The notes beneath the pieces are model-generated. The model saw nothing but the letters and a program-made list of their open reading frames with translations. It had not been told where the DNA came from and made no database searches. From IMG/VR virus record IMGVR_UViG_3300037324_000043, positions 2,660-66,659 of that record: a stretch of DNA of 64,000 nucleotides; one strand, written 5' to 3'. The first letter of the stretch is position 1; every line of letters starts with the position of its first letter. The DNA is from a virus. The translations under genes and the position numbers were made by a program. Shown here one piece after another: positions 6,541 to 62,888 of this stretch.

Positions 6541-6975
6541 ATGGCACAATTCAAAATCGGAGAACTTTACGATGATTCGTTTAGAAAACTCACTCCACAA
6601 GAAAGAAAAGATAACCTGCAAGGGGTTATGTACGAGGGAAAGGAAAAAAGCTACACTAAAAATCTTACAGAAGATGAATTACTTGACCGCAAGGAAGAGT
6701 ATGCAGAAGTTGGCTTGAAGCTTTCTGAAATTGCTGACGAGAAAAAGAACTTTCTTGATAATTTAAAGCTACAAACAAAGCCTGTAACAGAGAGATCTTC
6801 AATCCTCTTAACTGCTATCAAATTTAGATCAGAGCAGAGATACGGGATTATTTACAGTGTAGACGACCAGGAAGAAGGTATGATGTACTTCTTTGACGAG
6901 AACGCTTATTGCGTAGACGCTAGACCTCTAACTAGAGAGGAAAGACAGATTAAATTAAAAAAACTTAATTCCTAA
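6541..6975 (+). CDS. hypothetical phage protein
   Basis: 144-aa ORF with A-rich Bacteroidota-type start context. Confidence 0.7.
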   Translation: MAQFKIGELYDDSFRKLTPQERKDNLQGVMYEGKEKSYTKNLTEDELLDRKEEYAEVGLKLSEIADEKKNFLDNLKLQTKPVTERSSILLTAIKFRSEQRYGIIYSVDDQEEGMMYFFDENAYCVDARPLTREERQIKLKKLNS

Positions 6976-6980
6976 TTATC

Positions 6981-7700
6981 ATGGAAGTAGACAAATTGGC
7001 TTTAGAAGCCTTAAAAAAAGACCAAGGAAGTATTGTCGTATTAACTGGAAAAGCTCCAGAACAGCATAATCCTCAGCCTGTAAATATATCAGGAAATATA
7101 GACGCTCCATCTAGATTTATAGAAGGTAGGAAAATTGATTTTGAAAGATCTCAACGTCACTGTAAAGTTTCAAAAACCGATGGAACTATCGTATTGATTC
7201 TTAATGAACAATCTGTTGTTGATAAATATACGGTTTCAGGAAAAATTGAAGTTGGTAAAAAGTTCCAAAAGCTTGGGATCAACAAGGATAATGTTAACTA
7301 CAAGCCTGAAGAATTAGCGAACAAATTGAAGCTCTTACGAGCGATGTTTACAAGCAATTTAGAACACGCTACAATTTGCAGTACTCTTCGCAATATAAAG
7401 GCTACCATCAACAAGCAAATAGACAGCCTTGATGATAGAAAAGGTAATGTGACCGATAATTTTCAACAAACTGTTGCAAGCAACATGCCAGACGCTATTA
7501 TTTTAAAGCTTCCTCTACTTGAAGGCGAAGATCCTGTAGAAATATCGGTTAACGTAGTTCTGGAAGCTGACTCCTCCAGTCAAATCAAATGCTATTTAGA
7601 AAGCGTTGATGCAGCCGAACTAATTGAAGAGCTCTTTGAAAAAAGAGTCAACGAGGAAATCGAAAAAATAAAAGATTTCGTAACCATTATTGAACATTAA
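6981..7700 (+). CDS. hypothetical phage protein (possibly DUF2303-like)
   Basis: 239 aa; MPDAIILKLPLLEG-type C-terminal half; family call tentative. Confidence 0.6.
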   Translation: MEVDKLALEALKKDQGSIVVLTGKAPEQHNPQPVNISGNIDAPSRFIEGRKIDFERSQRHCKVSKTDGTIVLILNEQSVVDKYTVSGKIEVGKKFQKLGINKDNVNYKPEELANKLKLLRAMFTSNLEHATICSTLRNIKATINKQIDSLDDRKGNVTDNFQQTVASNMPDAIILKLPLLEGEDPVEISVNVVLEADSSSQIKCYLESVDAAELIEELFEKRVNEEIEKIKDFVTIIEH

Positions 7701-15100: not shown

Positions 15101-18100
15101 GCTTCGTCAAAGTTATTTTCCACAAAATCAAAAGCCTCTTCATCTGTCATTGAAGCTTCTGCGACTGCTTTTTTAATAGTGTCCGTAGTGATTTCTCTCT
15201 GCTCTTTTTTAGTTAGAGATTTATACCAATCTGTAGATTTAATGTAATTAAGACCTTCCTCTAGGGCTAAAGCTGCTTTTTTCCCTGCCTTATATGCTGC
15301 TTTGACTGCTTTTATAGCTCCAAGAGCCACTACGACGGGTAAATTAATACCAATTGTTCCGTCTCCAAAATCTTTTAATTGCTTTTCGGCATCTTCTAAT
15401 CCTTTAAGGAAAGCGTCATCGCTATTACCTTCTTGAATAGTATCATCTACGTCTTGGTCTTGCGCTCCTTCACGTTCTTGAATGCTTGTATTGCTGCTTT
15501 CTGATTCTCCGTCAATTGATCTTTGCCTATCGATTTCAAATTGGGCTTTTTCTTCTGTGGTTCCGAATTGTTCTTCATAATATTGTACTTTTTGGGCATA
15601 TGTAAGCTCTTCTAAGTAAGAGTCTTCTGCCATTTGTGATTCAACTAAAGATAAATCTTGTTCTGATAGAGAACTTAAAAAACTAGACAATTCCTCCTCG
15701 TCTTGGTTTGCATCAATTTGCTCTTGTAAAGATACAATTTGGCTTTGTATGTCAGAAATGCTTTGATTTTCAAGCAATATTTGAATAATAGCGTCACGAA
15801 CTACTGTTTGATCAAGACCTAAATTTGAATTTTCTGTAATTCCTTCTGAAGCTTTTTCAACACTAGGAAGTTTAGATTTATTTTTAAACCCAGAAGCCCA
15901 TCTTAATTCTTTTTTAGATGCTCCTGTTTCTTTAGAAGCGGAATCCAAATCAATATTACCTCCATTGGCAAAATATTCTAAAGCTGCTTCGTATTCATTT
16001 GTTGGCGTGTAACTGTCAAGAGCCTCAAATAACCTTTTCTTGTCAGCTTCTCTTATTTGATTCTCAGTCTTTTTTCCTAAAGCTTCGTTTTCAATTCTAG
16101 AATAGTTGGCATTTTTGGCTAATGTTTTTTCACCCGTTTTCTTACCAGTCTTTTCATAGAATTTAGAAATCAATCTTCCGTCTTTTGCACTCTTGATGCT
16201 TACAACATTATTATCTGAGTCAATTTCCACATCAAACTCACCTTTTACGCCTTTAGGTGAAACTCTTTTCGTGGTTGTTGGCTTAGAATCTAAAACATTT
16301 ACTTTTTTTACTTTAGCTTTTCCTTCACTTGGCTTAGGCTTAGCGGAGGGCTGTACTGAAGTATCTTTCTCTTTTGCTGCATCTTTACCATCTGTAGGTC
16401 GAACGTCTGCATCAGTAGCAGTATCTCCTTCCGTTTGTGCTTCATCCTTAAGTTTCTTAATTAACTTATCTCTTGAAATTACTTTTTTATTGGACACGGC
16501 AGCATCATCTAGTACAATTATTTGAGCATCGTCTAGGTTTTTGTTTGCTACAATTACATTATAACCAGCATCCCTTATTTTTTGTATAGCTTCAGATGGA
16601 AGATAACCTTGTGTTTGAATTTCCTCTCCTATTATTTTCTTTGCCTTTTCAGATTCTAACCAAATTGCATTTTCTAAACTTAAATTACCCTCAATATAGG
16701 TATCAAAGTCAGGCATTCTAGCTCCCATACCCCCATCCCAAGTAGCATGTAGTATATCCGCTCTTGATACAAAAACCCCTTCATCTGAGATATTATCCGA
16801 AGTACTAAAGAATGCATCCTTCCTATTTTTGTCTGTTATAAAACCATCTTTAATTATTAAGTCTGCCCTATTTTTAGTAGTACCGTGTTTTATCTTTATA
16901 GATTTCTCACTTTCTTTTACTTTGCTTAATTCATTAGCCTTTCTTTTAGCTAGTGAAATATCCTTATCTTCGAGGTCAACCTGTTCAAAATCCTTTTCAA
17001 GTAAATCTATCTCCCGACTGGTCTGACCTGTCTTAAGTGCCTCTTTAAATTCCTCAGGTGAAAAAAGTGGTTTAATATACCCTATAGAAGCATTATCTCG
17101 ACTGGCTTCTACTTTTTTTGTACCTTCCTCTAATACATCTTCTTGGTTGGCATCTTCTTCTTCTTCGGCGTTGATTTCTTCATCATTGGCTTCTTGGCTA
17201 CTTTCTTCATTTGATTCTTCATTGTTTTGTGGGTTTTGATTTGATTTATTATTTAAAGCTGTTATTTTATCTCTAGCATCTTGACTTATTTTATTTCTAG
17301 CCTCTCTATTTATAACTTTTAAACCTCTTTTTTTAACATCGTCTTTTACTTCTTTATTTATTCTTTTTTCTATTACTTCTATTTTATTAAGTATATCATC
17401 TCTTTCTATTCCACTCGCTGTTTCATTAAATTTTTCTGTTAACCTTATAACTTCTTTATCTTTATCTAATTTATTTATTTGTTCTGTTTTTATACCATCT
17501 AAAGAAATAGTACTGTCTAATTCTTCTTGTTTTTCTTTATTAATTTTTTCAATCTCAGATTGAGTATTAGATAATTGAGCTTTGACTGGTTTTTTAGGGT
17601 CTGGATTATCCCCTTCTTGTCTTTCAAAAATAGATATAGCACGTTCAGTAATCTCTTGATTGGTTATTTGGAAGTCCTTAACCCCGTCAGCTTCGTACTC
17701 AGCAATTATCTCGTTTTGAGCTTCATCTTTTAGCTTTAATGATTCTTCCTCTGTTAGAAGGTCTAAAAAGCTCTCCTTTTTTTCATCGACAACTATTTGC
17801 TTGCCTTCTAATATTTCATTTCTGTCTTTTTCCAAAACATTAAATTCATCCAAAAGGTCTTTTAGTATTTCAGTTCTTTGTTCCTGAGATAAAGATTTGT
17901 CTTCATTAATTAATTTTGCCTGCACCTGAAGGAAAGCTTGATTTTTTGTAATGCCATTAACTTTATTGTAGACTGCTTCGCTTAAATTTGAAGTGGAGCT
18001 TTGAGCTTTCTGAATTAATTTATCATTACTGGCATTGGCTTCTTTTATCTTACCTTCTAAAATGTTTCTTGTGGATTGATTTCCTGCGTTATTAAATGCC

Positions 18101-19998
18101 TTCTGAAGCTTAATGACTTTTAAATAGCCGTTCTTTATTTCTTCAATTTGACTCTTAGGCATAAAAGGCTTAATCAATTCTCCTGTTATTTTGCCACCAC
18201 CAATAATCAAAGGACTGCTTGCAAGAGTGGAGAATGTAGTTTTATCCAGGTTGTCTGTCAGCAAAACATCTTTTTTATCTAAAGCAAATCTATCTAATAA
18301 GTTTTGAGAAAAAGTTGTGGCGTTTTCGGTAAGAACTTCTACACCGTTGTCTTTAAAAAATTGCTTAGTAAATCCTAAAGCTCCTTTGTTCATTAATGCT
18401 CTATTTGCACTAGAACTAACGGATCGTCTTAGTATTCGAGAAGTAGGTAGTGCGCCCAAAACACTCTCAGCAGCACCGTAACCAAAGGGTATTGATATCT
18501 CCTGTAATAAAGAATAATTTGCAGGATTAATACCTGATTCTTCAGACTTCATTTCTGAAAACTTACTACCTCCTGTTGATATTCCAAGAGCTGTTATACC
18601 TGCGGTAGCTGAAAAGGGATTCATTATAGCTGCTAATATTGGAGCTTGTGTGACTGTCTCCTGAGCTATAAAATAACCAACGTCTTGAAGTCCTGTTATG
18701 TTATCGTATTCCATTCTAGGACGAAAGTTTTGTGCAACTTCCTGAGTCATTTTTTTAGTCTCCTCAGCAGACATAGCCATTTCATCAGACGCTATTTGAT
18801 CGGATTCGTTACCTGTAATAGCTGCCTTTATGTTTAAGGCGTAAGCAAATGCTCCTTGAGATCCAGCAACTACCAAATCTCCTGTTGACATAGCTATCTG
18901 AGCTTTCATGTTGTCTACAAAGCCGTAATTACGTTTTATTAAATCTATAGCCTCGGTAGTTTCTATTTTTTTATCTTGGTTTTGTTCCAACTTTTCTTCA
19001 AACTTTTTATACTTATCATCAAGAGTAGTGACAATCTGATTTCTTAATTGAAAGTTTTGTGCATACGTTTCTTTAAAACCTTCAGGCAATTCCTTGCCCT
19101 CTTTATTCATTTGCCTAATAAAATCTTCATTGGAATTTACTCTACTAGCCACTCTTGTTAATTTCTCAAAATCAATTTCAAGATCAATAACAGCAGCTTT
19201 TTCTTCCATTTCAACTGTTTTATAGTTGAATACCTGGTTGACATTTAGCTCTTCCCTGTCTTGTTCAGGAAGAGCTCCAATATAATCTATAGTTCTTCTC
19301 TCCCTAAGAGCATCTGTTTCATCTTTGATGGTGATTTGCTTTATTGCTGAACTTATATTTTCGGGAGTTTGCTCCTTGTTTTCTTTCTCTAAAAACTTAA
19401 TAGCCTTCTCTTGCTTTCTTTCCTTGTAAGATGGGAATTTAATATCCGGACCTAATCCAAGCGTGGCTACTGCTCCAATTTTACTTAAAACATTTACAGC
19501 TCCTTGTGTGAATTTTTCGAAAGTAGAACCGTCTAGTTTTTCTTGAGCATCCCTTTCAATTTGTTGTGCATCTTCAGGCCTTACAGACGTAGCTCTTTCA
19601 TAGTTGTCTATGTTAGCAAAGATTGTATCTCTATCAGCTAAATTATCTTGTAACTGACTTAATTCAGCCTCTTTAAAATCAAGGTTTGATACTCTTTCAT
19701 CTTGTGTAGGTTTTGGATTTTGTGCGTTAGGTGCGGAAGTAGCCAATGAACCATCCTGAGTCGGAGGTATTGGGGTTTCTTGTTCCAAATCCGAAGCAGT
19801 TTGTGAAGAAATAGAATCGCCTTTTTTTTTTAATGATTTGAAAAATGAAGAGTACTCATTTTTATCAGTAAACGAGCCTTTAGGAATTATATCATAAAGT
19901 TCGTCAATTCCATTTTCATCTACATAAGATTTTAATTGGTCTTTGTCTTTAAATGAGCCTTGTGGTAAAACGCCTAATAAATCATCTAATTCGTCCAT
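12103..19998 (-). CDS. large polyvalent ejection (internal virion) protein with ART-like and LPD38-like regions
   Basis: 2631 aa at end of tail module; IKHGTT...GF...EGVFVS; C-terminal LDFNQGG..FVPYINTATQG and TGYDFYRNQPL. Confidence 0.7.
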   Translation of the reverse strand: MDELDDLLGVLPQGSFKDKDQLKSYVDENGIDELYDIIPKGSFTDKNEYSSFFKSLKKKGDSISSQTASDLEQETPIPPTQDGSLATSAPNAQNPKPTQDERVSNLDFKEAELSQLQDNLADRDTIFANIDNYERATSVRPEDAQQIERDAQEKLDGSTFEKFTQGAVNVLSKIGAVATLGLGPDIKFPSYKERKQEKAIKFLEKENKEQTPENISSAIKQITIKDETDALRERRTIDYIGALPEQDREELNVNQVFNYKTVEMEEKAAVIDLEIDFEKLTRVASRVNSNEDFIRQMNKEGKELPEGFKETYAQNFQLRNQIVTTLDDKYKKFEEKLEQNQDKKIETTEAIDLIKRNYGFVDNMKAQIAMSTGDLVVAGSQGAFAYALNIKAAITGNESDQIASDEMAMSAEETKKMTQEVAQNFRPRMEYDNITGLQDVGYFIAQETVTQAPILAAIMNPFSATAGITALGISTGGSKFSEMKSEESGINPANYSLLQEISIPFGYGAAESVLGALPTSRILRRSVSSSANRALMNKGALGFTKQFFKDNGVEVLTENATTFSQNLLDRFALDKKDVLLTDNLDKTTFSTLASSPLIIGGGKITGELIKPFMPKSQIEEIKNGYLKVIKLQKAFNNAGNQSTRNILEGKIKEANASNDKLIQKAQSSTSNLSEAVYNKVNGITKNQAFLQVQAKLINEDKSLSQEQRTEILKDLLDEFNVLEKDRNEILEGKQIVVDEKKESFLDLLTEEESLKLKDEAQNEIIAEYEADGVKDFQITNQEITERAISIFERQEGDNPDPKKPVKAQLSNTQSEIEKINKEKQEELDSTISLDGIKTEQINKLDKDKEVIRLTEKFNETASGIERDDILNKIEVIEKRINKEVKDDVKKRGLKVINREARNKISQDARDKITALNNKSNQNPQNNEESNEESSQEANDEEINAEEEEDANQEDVLEEGTKKVEASRDNASIGYIKPLFSPEEFKEALKTGQTSREIDLLEKDFEQVDLEDKDISLAKRKANELSKVKESEKSIKIKHGTTKNRADLIIKDGFITDKNRKDAFFSTSDNISDEGVFVSRADILHATWDGGMGARMPDFDTYIEGNLSLENAIWLESEKAKKIIGEEIQTQGYLPSEAIQKIRDAGYNVIVANKNLDDAQIIVLDDAAVSNKKVISRDKLIKKLKDEAQTEGDTATDADVRPTDGKDAAKEKDTSVQPSAKPKPSEGKAKVKKVNVLDSKPTTTKRVSPKGVKGEFDVEIDSDNNVVSIKSAKDGRLISKFYEKTGKKTGEKTLAKNANYSRIENEALGKKTENQIREADKKRLFEALDSYTPTNEYEAALEYFANGGNIDLDSASKETGASKKELRWASGFKNKSKLPSVEKASEGITENSNLGLDQTVVRDAIIQILLENQSISDIQSQIVSLQEQIDANQDEEELSSFLSSLSEQDLSLVESQMAEDSYLEELTYAQKVQYYEEQFGTTEEKAQFEIDRQRSIDGESESSNTSIQEREGAQDQDVDDTIQEGNSDDAFLKGLEDAEKQLKDFGDGTIGINLPVVVALGAIKAVKAAYKAGKKAALALEEGLNYIKSTDWYKSLTKKEQREITTDTIKKAVAEASMTDEEAFDFVENNFDEADAAFENKQPRKAVRRKIVRKLIEKITDRQFLSKKLVDEAGAQQTKDAMVNSHGASGKARRIFDKAYSDIYTDRIKIKVKGGFEVEFRPMSNADRVLLDKIIQLKRFIAIDKNRSAKGLPTVKHPGFVNGIIAQKYLNSAEQKIGTKKYKDLENRAKIYFDTYKSLLDEMRNNGLISQKVYDDLSGLDYQPRLFLQHITDFEGNVSLGAAQTEKSDTGGLSQNQIKNLNEGSSGNLVRNSEWLLSTSIVSRQRAMAMNTVNKVFMTKEFPAAKKRFDALKKNLSNRKEWTVEDERFYEYFIELNRKIKDNPIIKKKENTEQTVIDGMVPEFIYERKFKKTPSNFKKAYYYVDGIRNEFFIEEELHNSWFDNLSGFLNSRSKEGFSYVSGSALLKGIATGNNPAFALVNIPRDFIFNVVFSDQYSSNVFKAMFQVSKDTFIAINEIRKSKGNYNMDSSNMLDNYIYYGGDMAFLSTQGRLKKDTVLAKTLDRLITPRVKAIGGSLFKAVTLRKLSNYSEIMFRMALFKRTIKNQLDLKGLKSISEVKSQEEKDAIYMRAVAEARSLLDFNQGGAVTKDLEAFVPYINTATQGSRVAVDAFKKNPQKITSKILQAGVILSGSAVVGSLALIAKNKDEEDKDKSPIEIWLEAMEGVSRYQRIQYFNIVDGTKNEDGEYRIWKIAKNQQLAPILNIADNVYTQLINQIVGKERKDSKVNYAEAWTAIQNNIIPIDITSLTANLAKIPTAKAALTYTTGYDFYRNQPLTFDQNQDIPEMEGAKDKNIDGFYKQIGRSTHLSPSRLKGSIESLITTPSTNPFIGVLYAGADAVATDDKDISKIGSDLGNDLLKSFNKRLISHTSGFNRQVNRLRPIQGDLKNIKIKNAYREIDVEALASSFYNDEISVPAFIEALKGYAPKELERVESKIKNIAKYKDIDRYVIGLAFENDREARALKIVQYYGNVFDGSAKNDKVFDQMLKMNIFDDETIEEYTELMDKMKKDK

Positions 19999-39790: not shown

Positions 39791-42123
39791 TACATGGCTA
39801 TTTTAGAAACGGAACCGCTATTGTTATACACAGTAAAAGGAACGGTCATTCGTTTTTGTTCAACATATTTTTTTATTGTCCGTCTTTGGTTCCCGACGTC
39901 AGCTAAACTAGCTCCAATATATGCATCAAATTTAGTTCTATTACTCGTATCAACTTCTTTATACTGATATAAAGTTCGTGTAAATGGCATATCTCCCATT
40001 TCACCCATTAATCGATAAGAATTATCTCTAGCAACACCCACATGATCTTCTATGTAAGCTTCTGTAGCGTAAAACTGCGCTTCTCCAATTTTGGTATCTT
40101 GTTGTGGTGCTCCACCAAACTCCTGCTCAGTAGGGGATAAATTAATCCATCCTTTTTTAAACGGATTATTCATACTAAAATGACGAAAGCCCCATTCTTT
40201 TATATTAGCTAAAAATCTTTCGTTTGATAGTTCTGATAAAAAAGGCATGCTGTAATAAATAGAAGCCATAATTACATCTTCAAAAAACTGTTCAACTTTT
40301 TTAGGTCTGTCTATGTATTCTAAAATTTGAGTATTATTTGGTAAACTCTCGCACGTATGGGTTTTAGTTTTTAAAATGATAGCTCCATTTGAGCCTCTTC
40401 CGTCTGCATTTTTACTCCTGTTATAAGGGTCAACTCCAAGTGTTCCAATGTGTCCTGCCAGTGGTGAATTAGCTAGTATTCCTCCATTTTTACGAACCAT
40501 CTCATATTTATTCCTAAACTCTTTTGGAGGATGGCAACCTAGCTTGATAAAGAAACGCCCTTTTTCTGGGTCTGGATTCCATCTAACTGTTCCAAACCGA
40601 ATACCGTCCACCCAAGAAAGATTACCCCTCTCTACGCCTGCATTACCTTTCCAAGTTCCGCTTTCGCTGTTATAAGTATCTTCAAGCTCCCATTTGTTAT
40701 GCTCAATCTGTTCATCTATTTTAATCTCATTAAACTCGCAATCACCACTTTCATTTCTAAATGCATCCTGTACAGTATCAGGATTTTGACGCATAAATTC
40801 GTTTAAATCTTCTGGGTCGTTTTTAAGCGCTTCAATTGAGTTTGCTAAAAAGCTTATGGCGCCAGTTTCTACATAAACGCCTTCATCTGTTTTTATGGGT
40901 TTTTTAGGGTCTTCTAGTATTGAAAATCCATACTCATCAAACATACCCTCAAGGCAATATTTTGAAGGAACAAATATTCGATAAAGTCCTGATTTTGTTT
41001 GTCCGTTAAGATCGCGCTCCCTGCAATCGCTTTGATCCCATATTTTTTTATACTCAGAACCTCCTTTTTTAAGTGAGTTTACAGTAGAGACAACCATAGA
41101 TTTACCAGTGATTATAACTCCTTTTCTGTGTGAAGTTTTTACAATAGGCCAATATTTAGAAAAAGGAACATCTTTTGGATATTTTCCAGATTCATCAAGA
41201 AGTGATCTAAAAATAGCATCACCGTCCATTGCATTAATATCGGTGTTGTGCCATTCAACCATTGTTCCAAGTCCGTTACCCATTGAGACTGAAGCTCCAA
41301 CAGATTTACGTTTTGTAGTCTCTTCAAGGTTTAGTTTTTTCTTAGGCGTATTAGTTCCATCCCATACAGGCCTAAAGAAAGAAGGAAGTCTTTTAAAAGC
41401 TGTAATGTAACGTCTAAATATTTTACTAGCATCATCTCCTTTTTTAGAGATCATTCCAAGCAATTTATCTTCATGCAAAGTAGCTGCTTCTAGCATTTCA
41501 AATATCGCTAAAAGGGAAGCTCCCATACGTCTATTTTTCACATACTGCATTCCAAAACATCTACGGTCAGCCTTGCAAGCTTCCCAGAATATCATAAGCT
41601 CACTTTGGATAACTCTAAAATTAGGGTGCTCAGCTATCTCCCTTACCCATTGAATACCAAACCAATAAGTACCGGTCATATAAATAGGCAATCCTTTGAG
41701 GTATATCCAAACGCCTTGCTCTCTATTTTTGTATTGCTCATCAATATAAGATTGATGCTTTTTAAATAACTTCTCTAAATAGGAGTCAATTTGATCTTGT
41801 TTTTTTTGAGCTGTTCCCGTAAATTTTGAGGTTATAGCATCTATGCTATTGTACTCTAATTCAGCAGGTTTTTTTTCACGATAAAACTTTTGCTGAGAAT
41901 CAATTTTTTCATGATTAACTATATACTTTTTATTAGGCATTTCAGGAAGTCCAATCTTTAAGCCTTCGATTTCATAGACTTCGCCAAGCGTACCATCTTT
42001 GGAAATAATTACAACATCGTGTTCTTTGTTGTAACCATAACTCCAAGACTTAAGCTTATTTAAAATCTTTTTATCTTTGGCTGTGATCTTTAGCTCTACC
42101 TTATGTCCTAAGTAATGTATCAT
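39790..42123 (-). CDS. terL: terminase large subunit
   Basis: YVKNRRMGAS (Walker A-like), LLDESGK (Walker B), GVDPY nuclease motif, KFDAYI. Confidence 0.9.
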   Translation of the reverse strand: MIHYLGHKVELKITAKDKKILNKLKSWSYGYNKEHDVVIISKDGTLGEVYEIEGLKIGLPEMPNKKYIVNHEKIDSQQKFYREKKPAELEYNSIDAITSKFTGTAQKKQDQIDSYLEKLFKKHQSYIDEQYKNREQGVWIYLKGLPIYMTGTYWFGIQWVREIAEHPNFRVIQSELMIFWEACKADRRCFGMQYVKNRRMGASLLAIFEMLEAATLHEDKLLGMISKKGDDASKIFRRYITAFKRLPSFFRPVWDGTNTPKKKLNLEETTKRKSVGASVSMGNGLGTMVEWHNTDINAMDGDAIFRSLLDESGKYPKDVPFSKYWPIVKTSHRKGVIITGKSMVVSTVNSLKKGGSEYKKIWDQSDCRERDLNGQTKSGLYRIFVPSKYCLEGMFDEYGFSILEDPKKPIKTDEGVYVETGAISFLANSIEALKNDPEDLNEFMRQNPDTVQDAFRNESGDCEFNEIKIDEQIEHNKWELEDTYNSESGTWKGNAGVERGNLSWVDGIRFGTVRWNPDPEKGRFFIKLGCHPPKEFRNKYEMVRKNGGILANSPLAGHIGTLGVDPYNRSKNADGRGSNGAIILKTKTHTCESLPNNTQILEYIDRPKKVEQFFEDVIMASIYYSMPFLSELSNERFLANIKEWGFRHFSMNNPFKKGWINLSPTEQEFGGAPQQDTKIGEAQFYATEAYIEDHVGVARDNSYRLMGEMGDMPFTRTLYQYKEVDTSNRTKFDAYIGASLADVGNQRRTIKKYVEQKRMTVPFTVYNNSGSVSKIAM

Positions 42124-53675: not shown

Positions 53676-53713
53676 AATCCAAATATTATACGTAAGCAAA
53701 ATCAGTTCCTAGA

Positions 53714-53776
53714 TGTAAATTAAATTGACAGTTAGTGCATTTCAATATTCATAAGTGTAAAATAAATTGACAGTTA
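53714..53776. repeat. two 21-bp direct repeats (20/21 identical), 42-bp period
   Basis: TGTAAATTAAATTGACAGTTA at 53714 and TGTAAAATAAATTGACAGTTA at 53756. Confidence 0.85.
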
Positions 53777-54514
53777 TGACTTTGGTTAACTGACTGTAAA
53801 TCAATTAATCACAATCTTTTTACTGGGCTGAGAAGCATTTCAATATATATTGTTACTATGAAGAGCTTGGTTTTATGCGTTTCTTATCCCCGTACAAAGA
53901 AAATATAAATATGTTACACTACCAAAATTTGTATATAAAGTGATTATACGGTAAAGTTGTGGGGATGGAATACTATATATGGCGAGTCGGGCGCGTGAAG
54001 GAAAACGGATATATTGGACCCACGGGGGTTGATCCTAGTATTGAAATTGTGAGATTTTCAGCTTTTTTATCCTAAACTATTTTTGAAATCGTGGCCCTAA
54101 CTACTGCCTAATCTCATAAGGGTAACAGATCAAACCTTGTGAACCCTTGCTAGTGCTATGAAAACATAAACTTTCAACCTAATTTTCCCGACATGCTCCC
54201 TGCATTATGTAAACCCCTGGTTAACGGTCGAGATCTCGCCAACATATAAAGAAGGAACTAAACTAATTTGAAAACCTTCTCCAGCTTAGAATTTTGAACT
54301 CCTTCACGAGGTCGCGCCCTTGGTTCAAACCCTATCCCTTTCCCCTCCTTCATCATAAAATTATTTAACCCCTTATATCTTAATATTTATATAATTATTA
54401 TATTTTCATTTAATTTTATAAAAATAACCCCTTGTAAACCCCTATAAACAGTACGTTATAAGAAAAACTTATAATTTAACTCTAAAAAGGTGCAAAATTC
54501 CAATGGATTATATT

Positions 54515-54545
54515 ATTGTTATACCTTTTATTATGTGTACATTTG
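54515..54545 (+). promoter_or_regulatory. early-operon promoter
   Basis: TACATTTG (-7) at 54538-54545 with TTG about 20 nt upstream. Confidence 0.65.
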
Positions 54546-54562
54546 TCCACATGATAGAAAGA

Positions 54563-54607
54563 ACCCTTTATATATAGGGTATGAGGTTAAAAGTTCATTG
54601 ACATATT
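54563..54607 (+). promoter_or_regulatory. hairpin plus boxA-like antitermination element
   Basis: ACCCT/AGGGT hairpin 54563-54580 then GTTCATTGACAT 54593-54604. Confidence 0.55.
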
Positions 54608-54766
54608 TATCAATTCTGAGTTAGGGCGGTCTTAAACTGTGATGTACTACGATACATTAATAAAACGGTTATAGGCTTAGACTTATAAAGAATTAGATAA
54701 GACTTAATAAAGCTTATAGAGCGTAGCGAATAACTCTATAAGCATCTAACTAAATAAATTATCATT

Positions 54767-54907
54767 ATGAATGAATTAGCTAAAAAGATTTGCGAGTACA
54801 ACGGTCAAAAAGGAACACCCAAGCAAGTAGAAAAATGTATTAAAACATTTTCGGGAAGTCTTGAAATTATGCAACAATTCGCAAAAGGTAGAATTAAAAA
54901 CGCCTAA
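54767..54907 (+). CDS. small early protein (46 aa)
   Basis: Hand-translated MNELAKKICEYNGQKGTPKQ...; between hairpins 1 and 2. Confidence 0.55.
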   Translation: MNELAKKICEYNGQKGTPKQVEKCIKTFSGSLEIMQQFAKGRIKNA

Positions 54908-54971
54908 ACAATTAAAACCGCTTTCTTTCATTGGCTTGAGGGAAAGCACCTAACTTAAAAACCCTTGAATA

Positions 54972-55136
54972 ATGTTTATAGTAAAAGACAAAAACATCTA
55001 CAGCACCAAAACAAAAAAAGTACGGTTTTTTATTGGTAAGAATAGGTTGAAACCTAATAACACCTTTAATAAAACTAAGGATATTATTTATGTTGAATTT
55101 TTAACGTTGTTTCTACTCCTAAGCTTAAAAAAGTAA
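54972..55136 (+). CDS. small early protein (54 aa)
   Basis: Hand-translated MFIVKDKNIYSTK...; between hairpins 2 and 3. Confidence 0.4.
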   Translation: MFIVKDKNIYSTKTKKVRFFIGKNRLKPNNTFNKTKDIIYVEFLTLFLLLSLKK

Positions 55137-55210
55137 ACACCCTCAAACGCTGTAAAGTATTGGTTTACTCTACAGTATCAAAAATTATAAACCCAAATAC
55201 ATCAAAAACT

Positions 55211-55468
55211 ATGGATAATTTAACAACGCCTTTAATAAATCTAAACGGTAACAGCAAAGAGCAAATAAATGAACAGAATTTAAATGTTTATAGGAGTTTG
55301 AGCGCTACAATTCAAGCAATGAGTAAAACCGAGTATGACAACGGGAGAAACTCAATAGACAAAAGCCATCATTTAAAAATGAGAGAAGAGAAGGCCGAAA
55401 TTATACAAGGCTTAAAAAAATATCAAAACTTATTTATGAAGCTTCAAGTAGAAATAAATAAAAAGTAA
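55211..55468 (+). CDS. hypothetical early protein
   Basis: Probable start MDNLTTPLINLNGNS after hairpin 3. Confidence 0.65.
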   Translation: MDNLTTPLINLNGNSKEQINEQNLNVYRSLSATIQAMSKTEYDNGRNSIDKSHHLKMREEKAEIIQGLKKYQNLFMKLQVEINKK

Positions 55469-55512
55469 GACCAACCAACGGGAAACAATACCAACCAAAT
55501 AAATTAAACACT

Positions 55513-55797
55513 ATGAAAACAGGACCCAACGCGCCATATGACCCTAAAATAATCATAACAGGCCCAAACGCATCAAATAAGAATTTCGTTAAAACTCCTT
55601 CAGGATATACCCACACGCCAACGGGCGCAACTCTTGAAATATACCTAAGCAAAGGAGAAGAGGACGACCAAGGAGAGATATTACAACATAATTTATACTA
55701 TGTTTTAGATTTTGACGGTGAGCAAATCTCATGCGATTATGACGACTATGAGCAAGGCAAACACGCAATTTTGGACCATTACGAAATTGAGGAGTAA
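55513..55797 (+). CDS. hypothetical early protein
   Basis: 94 aa, flanked by 20-bp direct repeat. Confidence 0.65.
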   Translation: MKTGPNAPYDPKIIITGPNASNKNFVKTPSGYTHTPTGATLEIYLSKGEEDDQGEILQHNLYYVLDFDGEQISCDYDDYEQGKHAILDHYEIEE

Positions 55798-55844
55798 AAG
55801 AGCAACACGGGAAACAATACCAACCATTTTAAAATTCAAAAATT

Positions 55845-56321
55845 ATGAATTATTTCAAGGACTGTAAAAAATTAGACGAAGCGAAGACACTATTTAGAAA
55901 ATTATGCCTGAAGCTTCACCCGGACACGGGAGGAACAAACGAAGACTTTATTTTCATGTTCAACCAATTCAAGAGCTTCAGACCCTTAGAAGGATTTGAA
56001 GAACCTTTCAACGCTGAAAAATTCTATAATAACGAAGTAAAGGCATTTGATATTTTGGACGACGTGAAGGTAAGCTTTGTTGGTTCTTTCATATGGTTAG
56101 AAGACAATGAAAAAGGAGCCACATACAGACAGAAAGACATAATTAATTCAATGGTTATCCAAGGCAAAAATAAGGCCCGCTTTGCCAAATTAAAGAAGGT
56201 TTGGTTTTTCTCCCCCGAAGGCTACAAACAGAAGGCAAAAAGTGGAAAGAGTTTGGCCCAAATTAAAAGCAAGTACGGAAGCAAGGAATACGCGACCAAA
56301 GGCAAACAGTTAGTATCCTAA
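55845..56321 (+). CDS. J-domain (DnaJ-like) protein
   Basis: KTLFRKLCLKLHPDTGG (HPD motif). Confidence 0.8.
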   Translation: MNYFKDCKKLDEAKTLFRKLCLKLHPDTGGTNEDFIFMFNQFKSFRPLEGFEEPFNAEKFYNNEVKAFDILDDVKVSFVGSFIWLEDNEKGATYRQKDIINSMVIQGKNKARFAKLKKVWFFSPEGYKQKAKSGKSLAQIKSKYGSKEYATKGKQLVS

Positions 56322-56399
56322 GTACATTTTTTATCTATTAAAAAAAGCTCGGTTCTATTGGTTTAGAACCGAGCAACTAATTTTAAAACCCTTTTCACA

Positions 56400-56657
56400 A
56401 TGTCAGATTTAATGAGCACTAAGCGTAATGTTTACACTTTGAAATTTAGAAGTAGCCACGAACTTTATTTTTTTTCAACTGATGAACAGTTAAACGAAAT
56501 TTTAAGGCTCCCGAACACTAAGCACGGAATCGAAAAAATTAAAGTTTACAACAATAAGGACCGATTTATAAGGGTATCAAAAACCGACTTTCAAAACTGG
56601 TTTAGTTTCAACACGGAAGCAATGGAGATACTAAGAAACATTAATTTTTTAAAATAA
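56400..56657 (+). CDS. hypothetical early protein
   Basis: 85 aa after hairpin 4. Confidence 0.6.
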   Translation: MSDLMSTKRNVYTLKFRSSHELYFFSTDEQLNEILRLPNTKHGIEKIKVYNNKDRFIRVSKTDFQNWFSFNTEAMEILRNINFLK

Positions 56658-56664
56658 AGTAATT

Positions 56665-56928
56665 ATGATTTATCTAAAAAAGTCAAACGTTCAAGAGATT
56701 GACAAACACATCAAAGACGCTTTTAAATCCAAGATAATTGAGGGCAAATTATTTGCCCTTTTAAAATTAGTTGAGACAAAAGGCGAGCCAATGCAGGCAG
56801 AGGACAACGAATATTTAAACGGCCTTAAAGTACTGGAATATAAAAAAGGCTTTTATATAGGATTTAAAAAGCAGGAATTTTTAAATGGATCCTTCAAGCT
56901 TAACACAGTAGCACTAAAAACCACTTAA
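56665..56928 (+). CDS. hypothetical early protein
   Basis: 87-aa ORF. Confidence 0.6.
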   Translation: MIYLKKSNVQEIDKHIKDAFKSKIIEGKLFALLKLVETKGEPMQAEDNEYLNGLKVLEYKKGFYIGFKKQEFLNGSFKLNTVALKTT

Positions 56929-56950
56929 CAACAATTCAAAATTTAACACG

Positions 56951-57862
56951 ATGGAAAATTTAAACAGTTACAAAAAATTTGCGCCTAATGTATTTGTCGC
57001 AAAATGCCACGAACAAAACGAGAAAGGCGAAACGGTAATTATTACAACCAAATACGGGCAGGAGCACGAAAACGAAATACACAATTATTTAGGCAAAACG
57101 GCAGATGATTTTTACTTGTATTCAATTACTAGGTGCGACGGGTTCAACAGTCAAGAGAGAGCCAAAAAGAAAGCGGAGAAATTAAGCGGTTACGCTTCGA
57201 ACGCTGAGAAGCGAAGCAATGAAGCATATAAAAAATCTGATATGAGCGAGAGCGCAACGGGTATTCCGTTTGGACAGCCCATTCTAGTAGGACACCACAG
57301 CGAGCGAAGACACCGCAAAACTTTAGAGAGAGCATCACGAGCAATGGACAAGACCGTTGAAGAGAGCAACAAGGCAGAAGATTATAAAAGCCGCGCGGAA
57401 TACTGGATAAATAAAGCTAGTAAAATCAATTTGTCAATGCCTGAAAGCTTGGAGTTTTACGAGTTCAAACTAGAGGAGGCAATCAAGAACCACAAATTTT
57501 TAAAGGACAACCCAAGCGAGAGGCGCCACGGTTATAGCCTGACATATGCAAATAAGACAGTAAAGGAGACTCGTAATAATTTAAATCTAGCGGTTAGGCT
57601 CTGGGGTTCTGATGAAGTTATAAAACAAATCGCAGACGAGAAAAAAGAGAAGGCAGAAGCCGAAGCAGGGAAAAGCAAGAAAAAAACGGATATAGTTTTA
57701 AAATACGGTGGGTTTTTCGCCTTCAATAACGATCAATTAAAAAGTGGTCACGCTAAAATTTTGGAAGCTGGACACATTGAAAAAGGGGAAAAAGTAAGCC
57801 ATTTAAAACATGGCTTATATATTCCATCTAAAAATGTAGATGCTTTTTTAAAGGAGCTATAA
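56951..57862 (+). CDS. DUF3560 domain protein
   Basis: IPFGQPILVGHHSERRHR signature. Confidence 0.85.
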   Translation: MENLNSYKKFAPNVFVAKCHEQNEKGETVIITTKYGQEHENEIHNYLGKTADDFYLYSITRCDGFNSQERAKKKAEKLSGYASNAEKRSNEAYKKSDMSESATGIPFGQPILVGHHSERRHRKTLERASRAMDKTVEESNKAEDYKSRAEYWINKASKINLSMPESLEFYEFKLEEAIKNHKFLKDNPSERRHGYSLTYANKTVKETRNNLNLAVRLWGSDEVIKQIADEKKEKAEAEAGKSKKKTDIVLKYGGFFAFNNDQLKSGHAKILEAGHIEKGEKVSHLKHGLYIPSKNVDAFLKEL

Positions 57863-57954
57863 ACTAACAACAGCCTGCAAGACGTAGCGAATATTCTTGC
57901 AGGTATCTAACAACAATTCAAACCAGATCCACGGATCACAAACCCCCAAAAATT

Positions 57955-59775
57955 ATGATTGAATACAGAGTTATCAACATAGATTATGATACTAATGATA
58001 TAAAAGGTTTACCCGTATCATTAGATATTAAAATACCTTTTGAAATAATGGAGGAGGGCGAAGAGTCTATTGACTATTTTATAAGTGACGAAATATCTAA
58101 TTTAACTGGATTTTGTCATTTTGGTTATAATAGATTAATTATAAATAATTAACCCCCAAGACATGACACCAAAAACCAAAACTTACACTTACTCAATCAG
58201 GAACAACAAAGTTGAGATTAAAAAGGTCCAAAGAACTAAAACACAATACGAGTATTTTTTAAAAATATTCATAGGCCAAAGTGACTATGAGTCTATTTTA
58301 ATTTATCAACGAATGTGGTTAACAAAGAAAAACGCACTAGCACACGCCAAAGACGCTATAATAGACGCCAAAAAGCCAAGACTAGAAAGAGTAATATAAC
58401 CCCTAACCGCTTCAGGCCATTGGTTTGGCTTGGAGCACCTAACTAATTTAAAACCCCCAAGACATGAAAAAACGACTATTAAATGGTGAAATGATTGACT
58501 TAACAAATGAAATTGATTCAGTTACAATTTGGTTTCAATCAAAAACAAATAATTTTTGTTTAATGTTAAATGCAAAAGTTGTAAAGGCAACTAAAACATG
58601 GAATCCTATTCAAGAAAAACTAGAAAATATTGGGAATCTAAAAGAAATGTAATGAATGAATTGACAAGTCAAATTATATTTCACGTTGCAATAGTTATGA
58701 AGACATTCTTTGTAATAGACATTATTATCTTTTTAATCAACAAGAGTAAAAATATTTAAAACCCCCCAAACATGGAAGCACACGAATACGACGCATTGCC
58801 AGAGGAAGTAAAAACCATTTTAAGTGCCTTTGATGATAACAAGGATTTATACAAAGAATGTGTAAAGATCGAAACCAAGTTAGCCGGCATAAATTATCAA
58901 TGTAACTACGGTTTAGCCGGTGTAATTTACGACGTTAAGCCCCTCATCAAATTTGCTAAATTCTTCGAGGTTAACGGATATTGGAAGGACGACAAAACAA
59001 GCTTCAGAAACGCTTTATTTTCTGTAGATGTTCCAGATATCGACGCTGAAAAAATCAGCGATACGACCCAAATAAATGGGGTAAATGACGAGGATATATC
59101 TTTTTATGGCCTTGACGAATCCGAAATTAAAAGACTAATAGAAGAGGGAGCCAAGAACGATCAACTGGATTTTGTGATCACTGCTTACAAGCCTTTTTTC
59201 CCTCAACTAAAAACCCAGAAATTATGAGTTTACAAACTTACAGCGACGAGACGCTTATGCGAAGGTTACAAAATTACGATGAAAAATACTTTTTAAACCA
59301 TTCAAAATCAGTAGACAAATTCTCTGATGTATTGGACCTTAAAATGAGAGACAAAGCGAAGGAGATAGCCCAAGAGCTAACAAATAGAGGTGTATTTTTT
59401 TCAGCAGTACACCTGAAAATTAATAATTACTAGAAACCGTTAGAGCGGTTAAAAATAGGTGTTAAGCTCTAAGCGTGGAGGGTTCGCCCTCCAGTCACAT
59501 TAATTTTAAAAGCACGGGAAATGCACACAAATTTAGGCGCAGACGCGTTAAACACAATGGAAGGGTACAAGGAGCTATGTACCGATGGAGAGTTTGAAAC
59601 CTTCGAAAACGGGATAATAGGTTTTGATATCGCACTTACTGGTTTTGGTTATCCAGCAATAGAAGCAAAACATAAGCTCATAAACATTAGGGATTTAGAT
59701 TTCGATGGTTTTACAGCCGTTATGTATGTTTATTTTGGAAAATTGCCAAGCGAATATTTAGACAAAGCACTATGA
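57955..59775 (+). CDS. cluster of small early hypothetical genes (57955-58152, 58163-58399, 58464-58652, 58772-59227, 59224-59433, 59521-59775)
   Basis: Tightly packed + strand ORFs; four share an AACCCCCAA-type leader. Confidence 0.6.
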
Positions 59776-61159: not shown

Positions 61160-61197
61160 AAAAAAGGTCCTCCGATTATTCGGCAGGACCTTTTTTT
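61160..61197. terminator. bidirectional terminator
   Basis: AAAAAAGGTCCT-CCGATTATTCGG-CAGGACCTTTTTT between convergent regulators. Confidence 0.75.
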
Positions 61198-61601: not shown

Positions 61602-62888
61602 TTATTCATATTTAGTATTCCAATATTTCTTAAGCTCATCCGCTGACTCAGTTTTTGTTTTTTTGATGTAGTGCAGCATCATATCTTCTTTTGCCCATCC
61701 GCAAATATTCATCAGATCTCTATTGGAAATATGCCCAAATAAATTAGAAGCAAAACTTCGGCGACAAATATGAGAACTTACAAGCTTATATTTTTTGTGA
61801 AGGCCATAAACTTTTCGTTTTTCCTTGGTTTTTTCATCGACTACAATTACACCGCCCTTTATTTGCTGGTCAATTTCAGCAATCATACAAATAACTTTGA
61901 TTTGCTCGTTGAAATGTTTGTCGCTGGTTTTAACGGGGAGATTGCCATGTCTTTTTTTAATCACTTCCCTAACCTGGGGATGAAGTGGAATTGTCACCCA
62001 TGCCCCTGTTTTTTGAGTTTTGATTCTAATATAATCCCCATCAATGTTGCTAATGTCCAGATTTTTATTGAAATCGCTGATACGAAGCCCTGTCCATAGC
62101 CCAATAATAGCATTATCTCTGATGTTATCGAGACTCAGATCATTGCTTAGGTCTAAATTGTACACAGAATCTATTTCCTTTTCGTTAAGATAGGGGTGAT
62201 CGATTTCTTCTTGGTCCTTTTCGACAAAAACTCTATCCTGATAGGTAGGATCTGTTTTTATTCCTTCGGTTTTAGCTCTTGAGATAAAGAATTTAGCTCT
62301 TGCTATCTGTCTCTTGGTCGTGTTCGAAGCATAATCTTTGCTAGTCATAAACGTGGTGAATTTATCCAGTATTTCATTGCTTACATCTTGGATTTTATAC
62401 GCCTTTTGACCCTCAAAGGATTTCCAGATCTTCAAAAAGGATTGATATTGCATTATAACACGCTTAGAGAGCATTTTATTTTTATCAGTTTTCCATTTGG
62501 GAGCCTTATTTTCTATCCACCAAAGGGCAAAATCAGAATAATACACGTAATGTTTCTCAATTGAAAGACGTTTCTCTTGCTTAGGTCGGTTGAAATATGA
62601 ACTCACAGCGTTATTTAGCCAATTCTTATCTATTATATCGCCCATCATAAAAGAATCGTTGTACGCCTCTAAAATGCCTATCTTAAGCTTTTCAAATTTA
62701 GCCTGCTTTTTTACTCTGTCTGATATTGACGAGAGGTTTTTGTAATTGGATTTTTTACTATCCCATTGCGAAGGATCAACGCTTAAATTAGTTGAGCACG
62801 AAATATCGAAGCTCCTGCCGTTGATAAATCGAATGTATAATGTTGAAGGATTTTTAGTGCCTTTTACGATTAGTTTTATTGTTGCCAT
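61602..62888 (-). CDS. int: tyrosine recombinase / phage integrase (Bacteroidota type)
   Basis: TGLRISD, KTQKT, HICRRSFA, GW, HY catalytic set; N-terminal arm-binding and SAM-like regions. Confidence 0.92.
   Translation of the reverse strand: MATIKLIVKGTKNPSTLYIRFINGRSFDISCSTNLSVDPSQWDSKKSNYKNLSSISDRVKKQAKFEKLKIGILEAYNDSFMMGDIIDKNWLNNAVSSYFNRPKQEKRLSIEKHYVYYSDFALWWIENKAPKWKTDKNKMLSKRVIMQYQSFLKIWKSFEGQKAYKIQDVSNEILDKFTTFMTSKDYASNTTKRQIARAKFFISRAKTEGIKTDPTYQDRVFVEKDQEEIDHPYLNEKEIDSVYNLDLSNDLSLDNIRDNAIIGLWTGLRISDFNKNLDISNIDGDYIRIKTQKTGAWVTIPLHPQVREVIKKRHGNLPVKTSDKHFNEQIKVICMIAEIDQQIKGGVIVVDEKTKEKRKVYGLHKKYKLVSSHICRRSFASNLFGHISNRDLMNICGWAKEDMMLHYIKKTKTESADELKKYWNTKYE

Follow-up and report, generated by a model that had tools for sequence, protein, structure and literature searches.

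The stretch of DNA considered here, referred to throughout as the window, comprises 64,000 nucleotides (nt), bases 2660-66659 of the 66,659-base IMG/VR virus record IMGVR_UViG_3300037324_000043, with a completeness estimate of 91%. Its plus strand carries an operon of small open reading frames (ORFs), which extends from about 54550 to a bidirectional terminator-like hairpin, and the spaces between these ORFs are punctuated by six short hairpins of constant stem length, the subject of this report. An earlier note, made from the letters of the window, had placed such hairpins at 54712, 54920, 55149, 56347, 57873 and 58409; all six are present and, as that note had held, all are intergenic, lying between ORFs of the one plus-strand operon (Table 1). 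The only ORFs overlapping them are a minus-strand GTG frame at 54776-54949 and a TTG extension of the ORF at 55211, neither of which is supported.

The hairpins fall into two loop classes, A with the 8-nt loop ATTGGYTT and B with the 12-nt loop CGTRGNGAAYAW, and share a tail that reads A[ACT]CTAA[CT] in five of the six, the exception being 55149 with ATCAAAA. In a mechanical scan for 10-base-pair (bp) stems five of the six had no mismatch, with 10/10 pairs when G·U is counted, and 55149 had one; each hairpin is moreover the minimum-free-energy fold of its own intercistronic stretch, the flanks remaining open (dG -10.2 to -20.1 kcal/mol, z -1.6 to -5.5). When both strands of the 64,000 bases are searched without filters, the class A covariance model gives its four sites 50.8-58.9 bits, the two class B sites 19-20 bits and the next best site in the window 15.7 bits (E 0.09), while the class B model finds its own two sites and, beyond these, weak cross-matches to the class A sites. 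Since nothing else in the window scores comparably under either model, the six sites are confirmed as real, restricted to this operon and all on the plus strand. Apart from 54712, which follows an untranslated leader (the 636 nt upstream hold no ORF), the stems start 9-25 nt past the upstream stop codon, and the next ATG lies 23-50 nt downstream of the hairpins.

The observation that G-U pairs occur only on the plus strand holds for the hairpins of the window, and the conclusion that they are not terminators is likewise upheld as far as ordinary terminators go, because a U-tract directly past the stem is lacking and just one of the six, 56347, is flagged by a consensus scan for terminators. 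The accompanying statement that there is no U-tract needs a correction, in that it is true of five of the six, whereas 56347 is followed by AACTAATTTT and is flagged as terminator-like on both strands; its T-run begins 6 nt past the stem, while the other terminator-like hairpins of the window have their T-runs at the stem. On the minus strand TTTTTTT comes directly after the stem 56347-56374, which in antisense transcription would serve as an intrinsic terminator; the A-run upstream of 56347 also precedes its orthologue in G001, a contig of the same clade as the window.

Table 1. Hairpins and other features of the plus-strand operon and its leader, in window coordinates; bit scores refer to the class A or class B covariance model or to the Rfam family named
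Feature	Position	Strand	Description	Next ATG	Score (bits)
Promoter-like box	54538-54545	+	TACATTTG; Bacteroidota-type -7 likeness		
Small leader hairpin	54563-54580	+			
boxA-like box	54593-54607	+	GTTCATTGACATATT; 15 nt identical to Flavobacteriaceae rrn-leader box		
Class B hairpin 1	54712-54750	+	stem 54712-54721 / 54734-54743; 12-nt loop CGTAGCGAATAA; tail ATCTAAC; first element past the operon leader	54767	57.5 (class B)
Class A hairpin	54920-54954	+	stem 54920-54947, two G·U pairs; loop ATTGGCTT; tail ACCTAAC; upstream stop 12 nt before stem	54972	51.5 (class A)
Class A hairpin	55149-55183	+	stem 55149-55176, one mismatch; loop ATTGGTTT; variant tail ATCAAAA	55211	50.8 (class A)
Class A hairpin	56347-56381	+	stem 56347-56374, perfect; loop ATTGGTTT; tail AACTAAT	56400	58.9 (class A)
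Class B hairpin 2	57873-57911	+	10-bp stem 57873-57904; loop CGTAGCGAATAT; tail ATCTAAC	57955	61.7 (class B)
Class A hairpin	58409-58443	+	stem 58409-58436, two G·U pairs; loop ATTGGTTT; tail ACCTAAC	58464	57.7 (class A)
Pistol self-cleaving ribozyme	59435-59499	+	RF02679; upstream stop 59433	59521	59.4 (RF02679; gathering score 34.5)
Terminator-like hairpin closing the operon	61161-61195	both	perfect 10-bp stem, then T-runs on either strand		

The phage itself can be placed by its proteins. It is a marine Bacteroidota phage, whose large terminase shares 62% identity with that of the Cellulophaga podophages phi18:3, phi46:3, phi13:2 and phi19:3 (Pachyviridae, Baltivirus), and the hosts of remoter relatives are Flavobacterium, Tenacibaculum and Maribacter. 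Portal, terminase and virion protein genes occupy the minus strand, and the products of the hairpin-bearing operon include a weak DnaJ-like protein, a DUF3560 protein, a RadC-like JAB protein and a Cro-like helix-turn-helix protein, a gene content from which the operon would appear to be an early one. A tyrosine recombinase gene (61602-62888, minus strand) adjoins it on the opposite strand. At the level of DNA similarity the hairpin region gave no match to named phages. The divergent operons are separated by a non-coding stretch of about 350 nt (54000-54360), which is kept in G001 and in G005, the second contig of this clade, and for which no match to a transfer RNA (tRNA), a transfer-messenger RNA (tmRNA) or an Rfam family was found.

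Covariation, intercistronic position and distribution of the family

Relatives were gathered via a 303-amino-acid (aa) protein and by pattern scans of viral, genome and metagenome contigs, and many further members came to light in this way. The class A set consists of 55 distinct hairpins, one of which (L077) is probably a chance match; its rows were picked for at least 9/10 pairs, many of them having come from pattern searches in which loop, GC/GY stem ends and tail were fixed, and pairing amounts to 97.8% of its 550 cells. All ten pairs show changes on both sides, 231 cells are compensatory, the covariation score was reached in none of 500 shuffles, and pairing falls to 36-46% when the partner strand is shifted by one to three columns. 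The eight class B sequences are 98.1% paired, with double changes at 9 of 13 pairs, including an A-U to G-C exchange within the loop. Among 144 pattern matches in the metagenome loci 50 pair at 10/10, the remainder forming a random-looking hump at 3-8 pairs. The stem of fixed length with pairing kept, which the earlier note had read from six examples, is thus matched by strong covariation in other phages, covariance models having been built for both classes. The folded strand is that of the messenger RNA (mRNA), because in rows chosen by Watson-Crick pairs only (at least 6/10) G·U exceeds A·C by 102 to 16; the proposal that the signal is probably RNA is thereby strengthened, the fold being placed on the mRNA-sense strand.

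The anatomy of the unit is simple. It consists, in order, of an A-rich and G-poor approach, a 10-bp helix, a conserved apex and a single-stranded A-N-C-U-A-A-Y tail, after which some 15-20 further unstructured A/U-rich nt precede the next AUG; the flanks as a whole are A-rich and nearly free of G. In both classes the stem mostly opens with GC(U) and ends with (A)G(C/U), an unpaired A follows, and then the tail N-C-U-A-A-(C/U), whose positions are close to invariant in class A (A 54/55, C 54/55, U 53/55, A 55/55, A 54/55). The base preceding the stem is U in just 2 of the 55, and the helix is therefore seldom lengthened by pairing with the tail A. The class A loop, AUUGGYUU, is closed by the folding program with an A-U pair to give a hexaloop. 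The class B loop, CGURGNGAAYAW, is shown by comparison to fold on: after a bulged C come the pairs G·U, U-A and R-Y, and a GNGAA pentaloop forms the tip, the R-Y pair being A-U in six and G-C in two of the eight sequences; the 57873 hairpin taken alone folds in just this manner, with bulged C, three pairs and GNGAA pentaloop. A third, rarer type, TTTAGGTGTG-ggRcaat-TACACCTAAA followed by GTCTAAC, occurs in G004 (38840), L283 and L324 (3947), with a 10-11 bp stem, a GGRCAAT/GACAA apex and 26 nt to the ATG, and a search for more loop classes with the same tail brought up this minor type alone. Several pairing partners of the loops were also considered. Pairing with the downstream AAACC box was rejected, the box being missing in many members, as was pairing with the hairpin's own tail, which is sterically impossible; no class A loop complement was found in the 16S ribosomal RNA (rRNA) stretches of four sampled Flavobacteriaceae genomes, and possible pairing with a CA-rich motif of the same operon extends over 6 nt only.

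The position of the hairpins relative to the neighbouring genes is similarly constrained. Over 87 distinct contexts, 35 of 67 class A stems start 10-14 nt past the stop codon and 53 of 67 start 5-24 nt past it, and 43 of 59 end 20-29 nt before the ATG; consecutive hairpins stand 161-1526 nt apart, and in none of 48 loci do hairpins occur on both strands. For class B, 7 of 11 have no ORF within the upstream 100 nt, which fits a role as the first element past an operon leader. Given the known footprints of ribosomes, the helix would lie just outside those of both the terminating and the initiating ribosome and could stay folded. Many starts of the operon, hairpin present or not, are also preceded at about 8-12 nt by an AAAACCC-type box (54957-54964, 56386-56392, 58452-58459 and 58750-58758, plus strand), which may be a signal for initiation independent of a Shine-Dalgarno sequence.

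Members of the family were found in the window's own clade, that is, in G001 and G005, in unrelated or distant phage contigs (G002, G003, G004, L142, L146 and about 30 metagenome contigs), and, as one class B hairpin each, in the Callevirus phages phi38:1, phi40:1 and Calle_1. A class B pattern restricted to exactly the loop and tail seen in the window had matched no viral contig, and for class B a relaxed pattern was needed. None was found in phi18:3, phi19:3, a Manatee Spring podovirus or Flavobacterium phage elemoE, and the remoter relatives L006-L012, fetched via the 303-aa protein, contain no convincing member. Among about 185,000 species genomes only three contigs of Bacteroidales metagenome-assembled genomes carry the hairpins, and one of these encodes a homologue of a window ORF. 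By this survey of sequences the family is shown to be phage-specific, and it can be described as one of hitherto undescribed, putatively cis-acting RNA hairpins belonging to presumed early small-ORF operons of Bacteroidota phages.

Leader box, companion RNA elements and cassette seams

The leader of the operon resembles that of a host rRNA operon. Five Flavobacteriaceae rrn leaders have a promoter box of TAnnTTTG type, the consensus behind the promoter-like reading of TACATTTG, followed downstream by the conserved box AAGTTCATTGACATATTG, and the box GTTCATTGACATATT of the window matches this rrn-leader box with no mismatch, being the sole such site in the window. Judged by its position, and by its likeness to the boxA sequences of Escherichia coli and Bacillus subtilis, GTTCATTGACATATT is the equivalent of the rrn boxA. 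This boxA-like box and the first hairpin are separated by 105-121 nt, and the other hairpins have no such box. It occurs also in G001, G005 and several metagenome hairpin loci, and, because it is present as well in the hairpin-less phi18:3 and phi19:3, it is apparently a wider trait of these phages, independent of the hairpins. In E. coli boxA is both necessary and sufficient to recruit the rrn antitermination complex, according to PMC10250234. The copied leader box suggests that these flavobacterial phages borrow the rRNA-type antitermination machinery of their hosts. The boxA leader of the earlier note is hence borne out by a 15-nt identity, and its description of the system as mimicking rrn expression is fair for the leader and not yet so for the hairpins.

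Other RNA elements occupy comparable slots. The Pistol ribozyme begins two bases after the upstream stop codon and ends 21 nt before the next ATG, and is kept in G001 (L233 8545-8609) and G005 (L239 13689-13753). In L146 a permuted two-piece tmRNA (6889-7122, plus strand), recognised by ARAGORN, with the tag ANIFAINNAPVRLAA up to its stop codon, and by Rfam (RF04321, 64 bits), starts 3 nt past the tail of a class B-like hairpin at 6848-6886, and a second class B hairpin at 7151-7182 stands 28 nt past the tag stop codon. Since class B hairpins here bracket a stable RNA, a purely translational role would leave the bracketing unexplained. The strand of phi38:1 that bears the class B hairpin also has a tmRNA gene and two tRNA-Glu genes, each followed by A-CUAAU, trailers that are close to the hairpin tail in sequence and offset from it by one base. 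This tmRNA, a one-piece molecule (NC_021796 26805-27164, minus strand; RF00023, 87.6 bits), is missing from the feature table of the phage and overlaps the hypothetical gp041, and ARAGORN finds tRNAs beyond the annotation, giving 21 RNA genes in total. The CA-rich motif mentioned above, CAAC(AC)GGGAAACAATACCAACCA, is repeated at 55476-55497 and 55803-55826 (plus strand) in long spacers devoid of hairpins, and is found also in G001 and G005.

The hairpins coincide with the boundaries at which related operons cease to resemble one another. Homology to G001 crosses the first hairpin up to the ATG at 54771, is lost over three ORFs and two hairpins, and is picked up again within a 94-aa ORF; a later block crosses the class B module and ends at 57946, beyond which a single unrelated ORF stands in place of two, and homology returns precisely at 58409, the base with which the next hairpin begins. 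More generally, the homology blocks to G001, G005 and G004 begin or end at hairpin modules, and the Pistol module shows the same seam behaviour. The otherwise unrelated G004 has three ORFs in common with the window, and one of these, the DnaJ-like 158-aa ORF at 55845-56321 (plus strand), matches G004 41577-42053 at 78% nucleotide identity exactly from ATG to stop, which looks like horizontal exchange at the level of single ORFs. Before the G004 copy stands a module with 86% identity to that of 58409, a module followed in the window by a different ORF. Because homology blocks between relatives break at the modules, comparison shows these to behave as portable linkers at which recombination would swap ORF cassettes between phages.

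Candidate functions

The reading to which we lean, as a real possibility somewhat short of probable, is that the hairpins are marks read by a trans-acting factor, with cleavage at or near the tail of the presumed early mRNA and the hairpin left behind as a protective end. Such a factor would read the loop and the base or tail of the unit across the fixed 10-bp distance and would cut in or beside the tail; the transcript would be antiterminated like an rrn transcript, and cutting would release cistron-sized RNAs, each with a protective 3' hairpin and a short open leader at its start. The slot of the Pistol ribozyme, the bracketed tmRNA and the rrn-type leader box favour RNA punctuation or processing of this kind, and do not show it. 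The reader would most likely be a nuclease, RNase P or RNase Z treating the helix as a tRNA-like minihelix being one candidate among several. The likeness to a minihelix, which the earlier note had proposed, is partial: in class A the first stem base is G in 52 of the 55 and the stem is followed directly by A in 54 and, two bases on, by C in 54, giving the G at +1 and the unpaired discriminator of such a substrate, whereas the 3' RCCA, the T-loop and the 12-bp coaxial helix are lacking. Of the earlier interpretation as a whole, the strand of the signal, the fixed and covarying stem and the leader box are supported, while cutting by RNase P, Z or III and binding by a phage protein would be candidate functions.

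A number of observations weigh against cleavage by a dedicated reader. Neither AUUGGYUU nor GNGAA is a T-loop and the tail is not RCCA, and a helix of 10 bp (11-13 with the apical pairs), in flanks predicted to be open, is short for RNase III, whose substrate is about two helical turns of double-stranded RNA (dsRNA). The 19 operon ORFs scanned against Pfam yielded no nuclease or RNA-binding domain, and no protein family specific to hairpin-bearing contigs was found, most of these contigs being fragments. In 101 sampled Flavobacteriaceae genomes, for which only the top candidates per genome were scored, no hairpin of this family was found, the best candidates at 24-29 bits proving spurious on inspection; this weighs against a host reader, because a host enzyme would imply host RNAs with the same loops. 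The hairpins are also dispensable for this kind of operon, since the boxA-like box occurs without hairpins in phi18:3 and phi19:3, the named phages to which the window is most closely related. The Pistol ribozyme co-occurs with them only in the window's clade, and no Rfam family was detected in 20 other array loci. Finally, outside the window the percentage paired and the conservation at pattern-fixed positions are partly so by construction; the bimodal distribution of pairing is not, nor are the hairpins of the same loci that the patterns had missed, which have stems starting GG, GA, GT or AC and the same tail.

A protein that binds without cutting is a rather doubtful candidate. A phage or host protein would in this case bind the loops and either switch translation of the downstream gene, as T4 RegA and the MS2 coat protein do at their translational operators, or load onto RNA polymerase, as lambda N does via boxB. 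Hairpins bound by proteins classically combine a stem free to vary with a loop that does not change, the class B GNGAA pentaloop closed by a covarying R-Y pair recalls the GNRA-like pentaloop into which boxB folds, an interval of 20-29 nt to the ATG puts the end of the hairpin at the border of the initiation footprint, and the boxA-like box stands in the same leader. Yet the distance of that box from the first hairpin, and its absence at the rest, fit an antitermination site poorly, such sites are not normally repeated before every gene, and one class B hairpin precedes a tmRNA instead of an ORF; the Pfam scan of the operon revealed no arginine-rich, RNA-binding or other candidate protein, small novel proteins being able to escape it, and no protein family is common only to hairpin-bearing contigs. 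An improbable reading, by which the hairpins would serve as expression linkers for translation without Shine-Dalgarno sequences, insulating an A/U-rich landing pad and uncoupling the cistrons while the ribosome or S1 contacts loop and tail, draws on the G-poor flanks predicted to be open, on the tight spacing to stop codon and ATG, on the movement of the modules with ORF cassettes, and on the resemblance of tail and leader (UAACUUUAAAAC in many members) to A/U-rich translational enhancers such as the epsilon of T7 gene 10. A pure insulator, however, would not hold 8-12 loop bases invariant; nor does the reading sit well with a hairpin that precedes a non-coding tmRNA, with the 50-58 nt that separate the phi38:1 and 57873 hairpins from the ATG, or with the failure to find a class A loop complement in the 16S stretches.

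The readings that place the signal in DNA, in termination or in catalysis are unlikely. That the hairpins act as DNA, whether as hairpin promoters, as single-strand origins or priming sites, or as attC-like sites for the tyrosine recombinase encoded at 61602-62888, is very improbable: the modules do coincide with cassette boundaries, the recombinase gene adjoins the operon and the tail ATCTAAC fits the RYYYAAC of the integron inverse core site, but wobble pairs occur solely on the mRNA-sense strand and position is fixed relative to stop and start codons. An attC site combines RYYYAAC with GTTRRRY, has L'' and L' boxes and a variable apex, whereas here there is no GTTRRRY partner, the RYYYAAC-like tail is not part of the stem and nothing in the unit is more conserved than the apex; the same recombinase family is moreover encoded by the hairpin-less phi18:3 and phi19:3. 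A promoter was rejected both on spacing, the interval from the loop TTG to the tail TA being too short for a sigma-70 or Bacteroidota promoter and differing between the classes, and on the existence of two loop lengths, and real TAnnTTTG boxes lie elsewhere. Scarcely to be entertained is the reading as weak or factor-dependent terminators or pause sites grading expression along the operon; stable hairpins directly past stop codons and the T-rich stretch after 56347 would suit it, but five of the six lack a U-tract, the other terminator-like hairpins of this phage have clear T-runs, the invariant loops would go unexplained, and the leader box suggests that transcription is antiterminated. A new class of small self-cleaving ribozyme, for which the equivalence of the slot to that of Pistol and the conservation of unpaired loop and tail bases might speak, is just as hard to credit, since the unit is a plain 10-bp hairpin with no obvious tertiary core and matches no ribozyme family, and since on geometric grounds the UUGG loop and the CUAA tail could not pair within it, two nt being unable to span a 10-bp helix.

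One further candidate concerned the 2631-aa virion protein (12103-19998, minus strand), considered as a virion RNA polymerase with hairpin promoters and set aside: it gave no sequence match to solved structures and no PHROG assignment other than 'virion structural protein'. In PMC5335546, phi38:1 is stated to have no RNA polymerase of its own. A preprint on the crAss-like phage phi14:2 reports no common motif for early transcripts, which has no bearing on the present phage.

Relation to known systems

As a motif, with an exact ruler length, a fixed tail and two classes of loop, the hairpin appears to be new. A search of Rfam 15 (the whole window at gathering scores, 53700-59600 at E<=5) returned no match over any hairpin, only Pistol being matched, in agreement with the earlier note, which had not recognised the motif as a described family. 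Likewise no description of it was found in the literature searched, supplementary tables excepted, among them the list of non-coding RNAs of phi38:1, which might cover the class B site; the flavophage genome paper PMC8776804 contains none of the words 'hairpin', 'stem-loop' or 'intergenic'. Gene expression in the Bacteroidota and their phages is poorly understood, with Shine-Dalgarno-free initiation, unusual promoters and few known RNA-binding proteins, and a compact, defined element of fixed length, known from about 60 independent stems and in two loop types, offers a handle for finding the nuclease or binding protein that would read it. The modules could also serve as ready-made insulating or processing linkers for multi-gene constructs in Bacteroidota, and their place at the seams of cassette exchange between unrelated phages bears on how accessory-gene regions evolve.

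One functional parallel is with the RNase III sites of the T7 early operon (R0.3-R1.3), where a host nuclease cuts the host-transcribed early mRNA into gene-sized mRNAs ending in a stabilising hairpin. Both are intercistronic hairpins of a polycistronic, here presumably early, mRNA, but the T7 sites comprise about 20 bp of dsRNA with an internal bubble and no fixed apical loop, whereas the hairpins described here, candidate cleavage sites, have exactly 10 bp, two invariant loop types and a fixed single-stranded tail. In lambda nut and rrn boxB-boxA sites the likeness lies in the GNRA-like pentaloop of class B and in a leader box identical to that of host rrn leaders; the differences are that the helix here has 13 pairs and a bulge against 5, that the hairpins recur before many genes, that boxA is not adjacent to them, standing more than 100 nt off, that class A has no counterpart, and that no N-like protein was found in the Pfam scan of the operon. 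The tRNA minihelix shares the stem starting with G, the unpaired A and the C two bases on, and tRNAs and tmRNAs occupy similar slots in related phages with the same CUAA trailer; counting A-U and U·U, class A even reaches a stack of 12 'pairs', but it has 10 Watson-Crick or wobble pairs rather than 12, no T-loop and no RCCA, and its tail register is one base off that of the phage tRNAs. The attC sites of integrons differ in that their boxes are paired within the folded site and their apex is unconserved, while here the tail is outside the stem and the apex conserved.

With respect to modular exchange, a parallel is offered by the PeSL modules of T4-type phages, conserved stem-loops between small variable ORFs that are the end points of insertions, deletions and replacements in the course of modular shuffling (PMC4122927). 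The present hairpins also stand at the boundaries of swapped small ORFs, but PeSL combines a terminator-like stem-loop with an early promoter, whereas here a fixed loop sits on a variable stem and the signal resides in RNA of one strand; no box of the TAnnTTTG type was found in or after the tail, such boxes lying upstream of the operon here and in G004. Pistol (RF02679) takes an equivalent slot in the same operon, the hairpins differing from it in lacking both an evident catalytic core and a match to any ribozyme family, and self-cleaving ribozymes have been suggested to process polycistronic phage transcripts (PMC6765202). The functional category itself thus has precedents, both in intercistronic processing or stabilising hairpins and in shuffling linkers. 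Taken as a whole, and as a bold and on balance unlikely proposal, the system would be one of rRNA-operon-like expression, in which a leader box copied from the host would render RNA polymerase processive and the long transcript would be divided at ruler-length hairpins read by a nuclease that measures loop and tail, or by RNase P or Z, these hairpins being interchangeable with a ribozyme, tRNAs and a tmRNA in such slots and doubling as the recombination linkers by which unrelated Bacteroidota phages shuffle early-gene cassettes: in short, a bacterial-virus counterpart of the tRNA punctuation of mitochondria.

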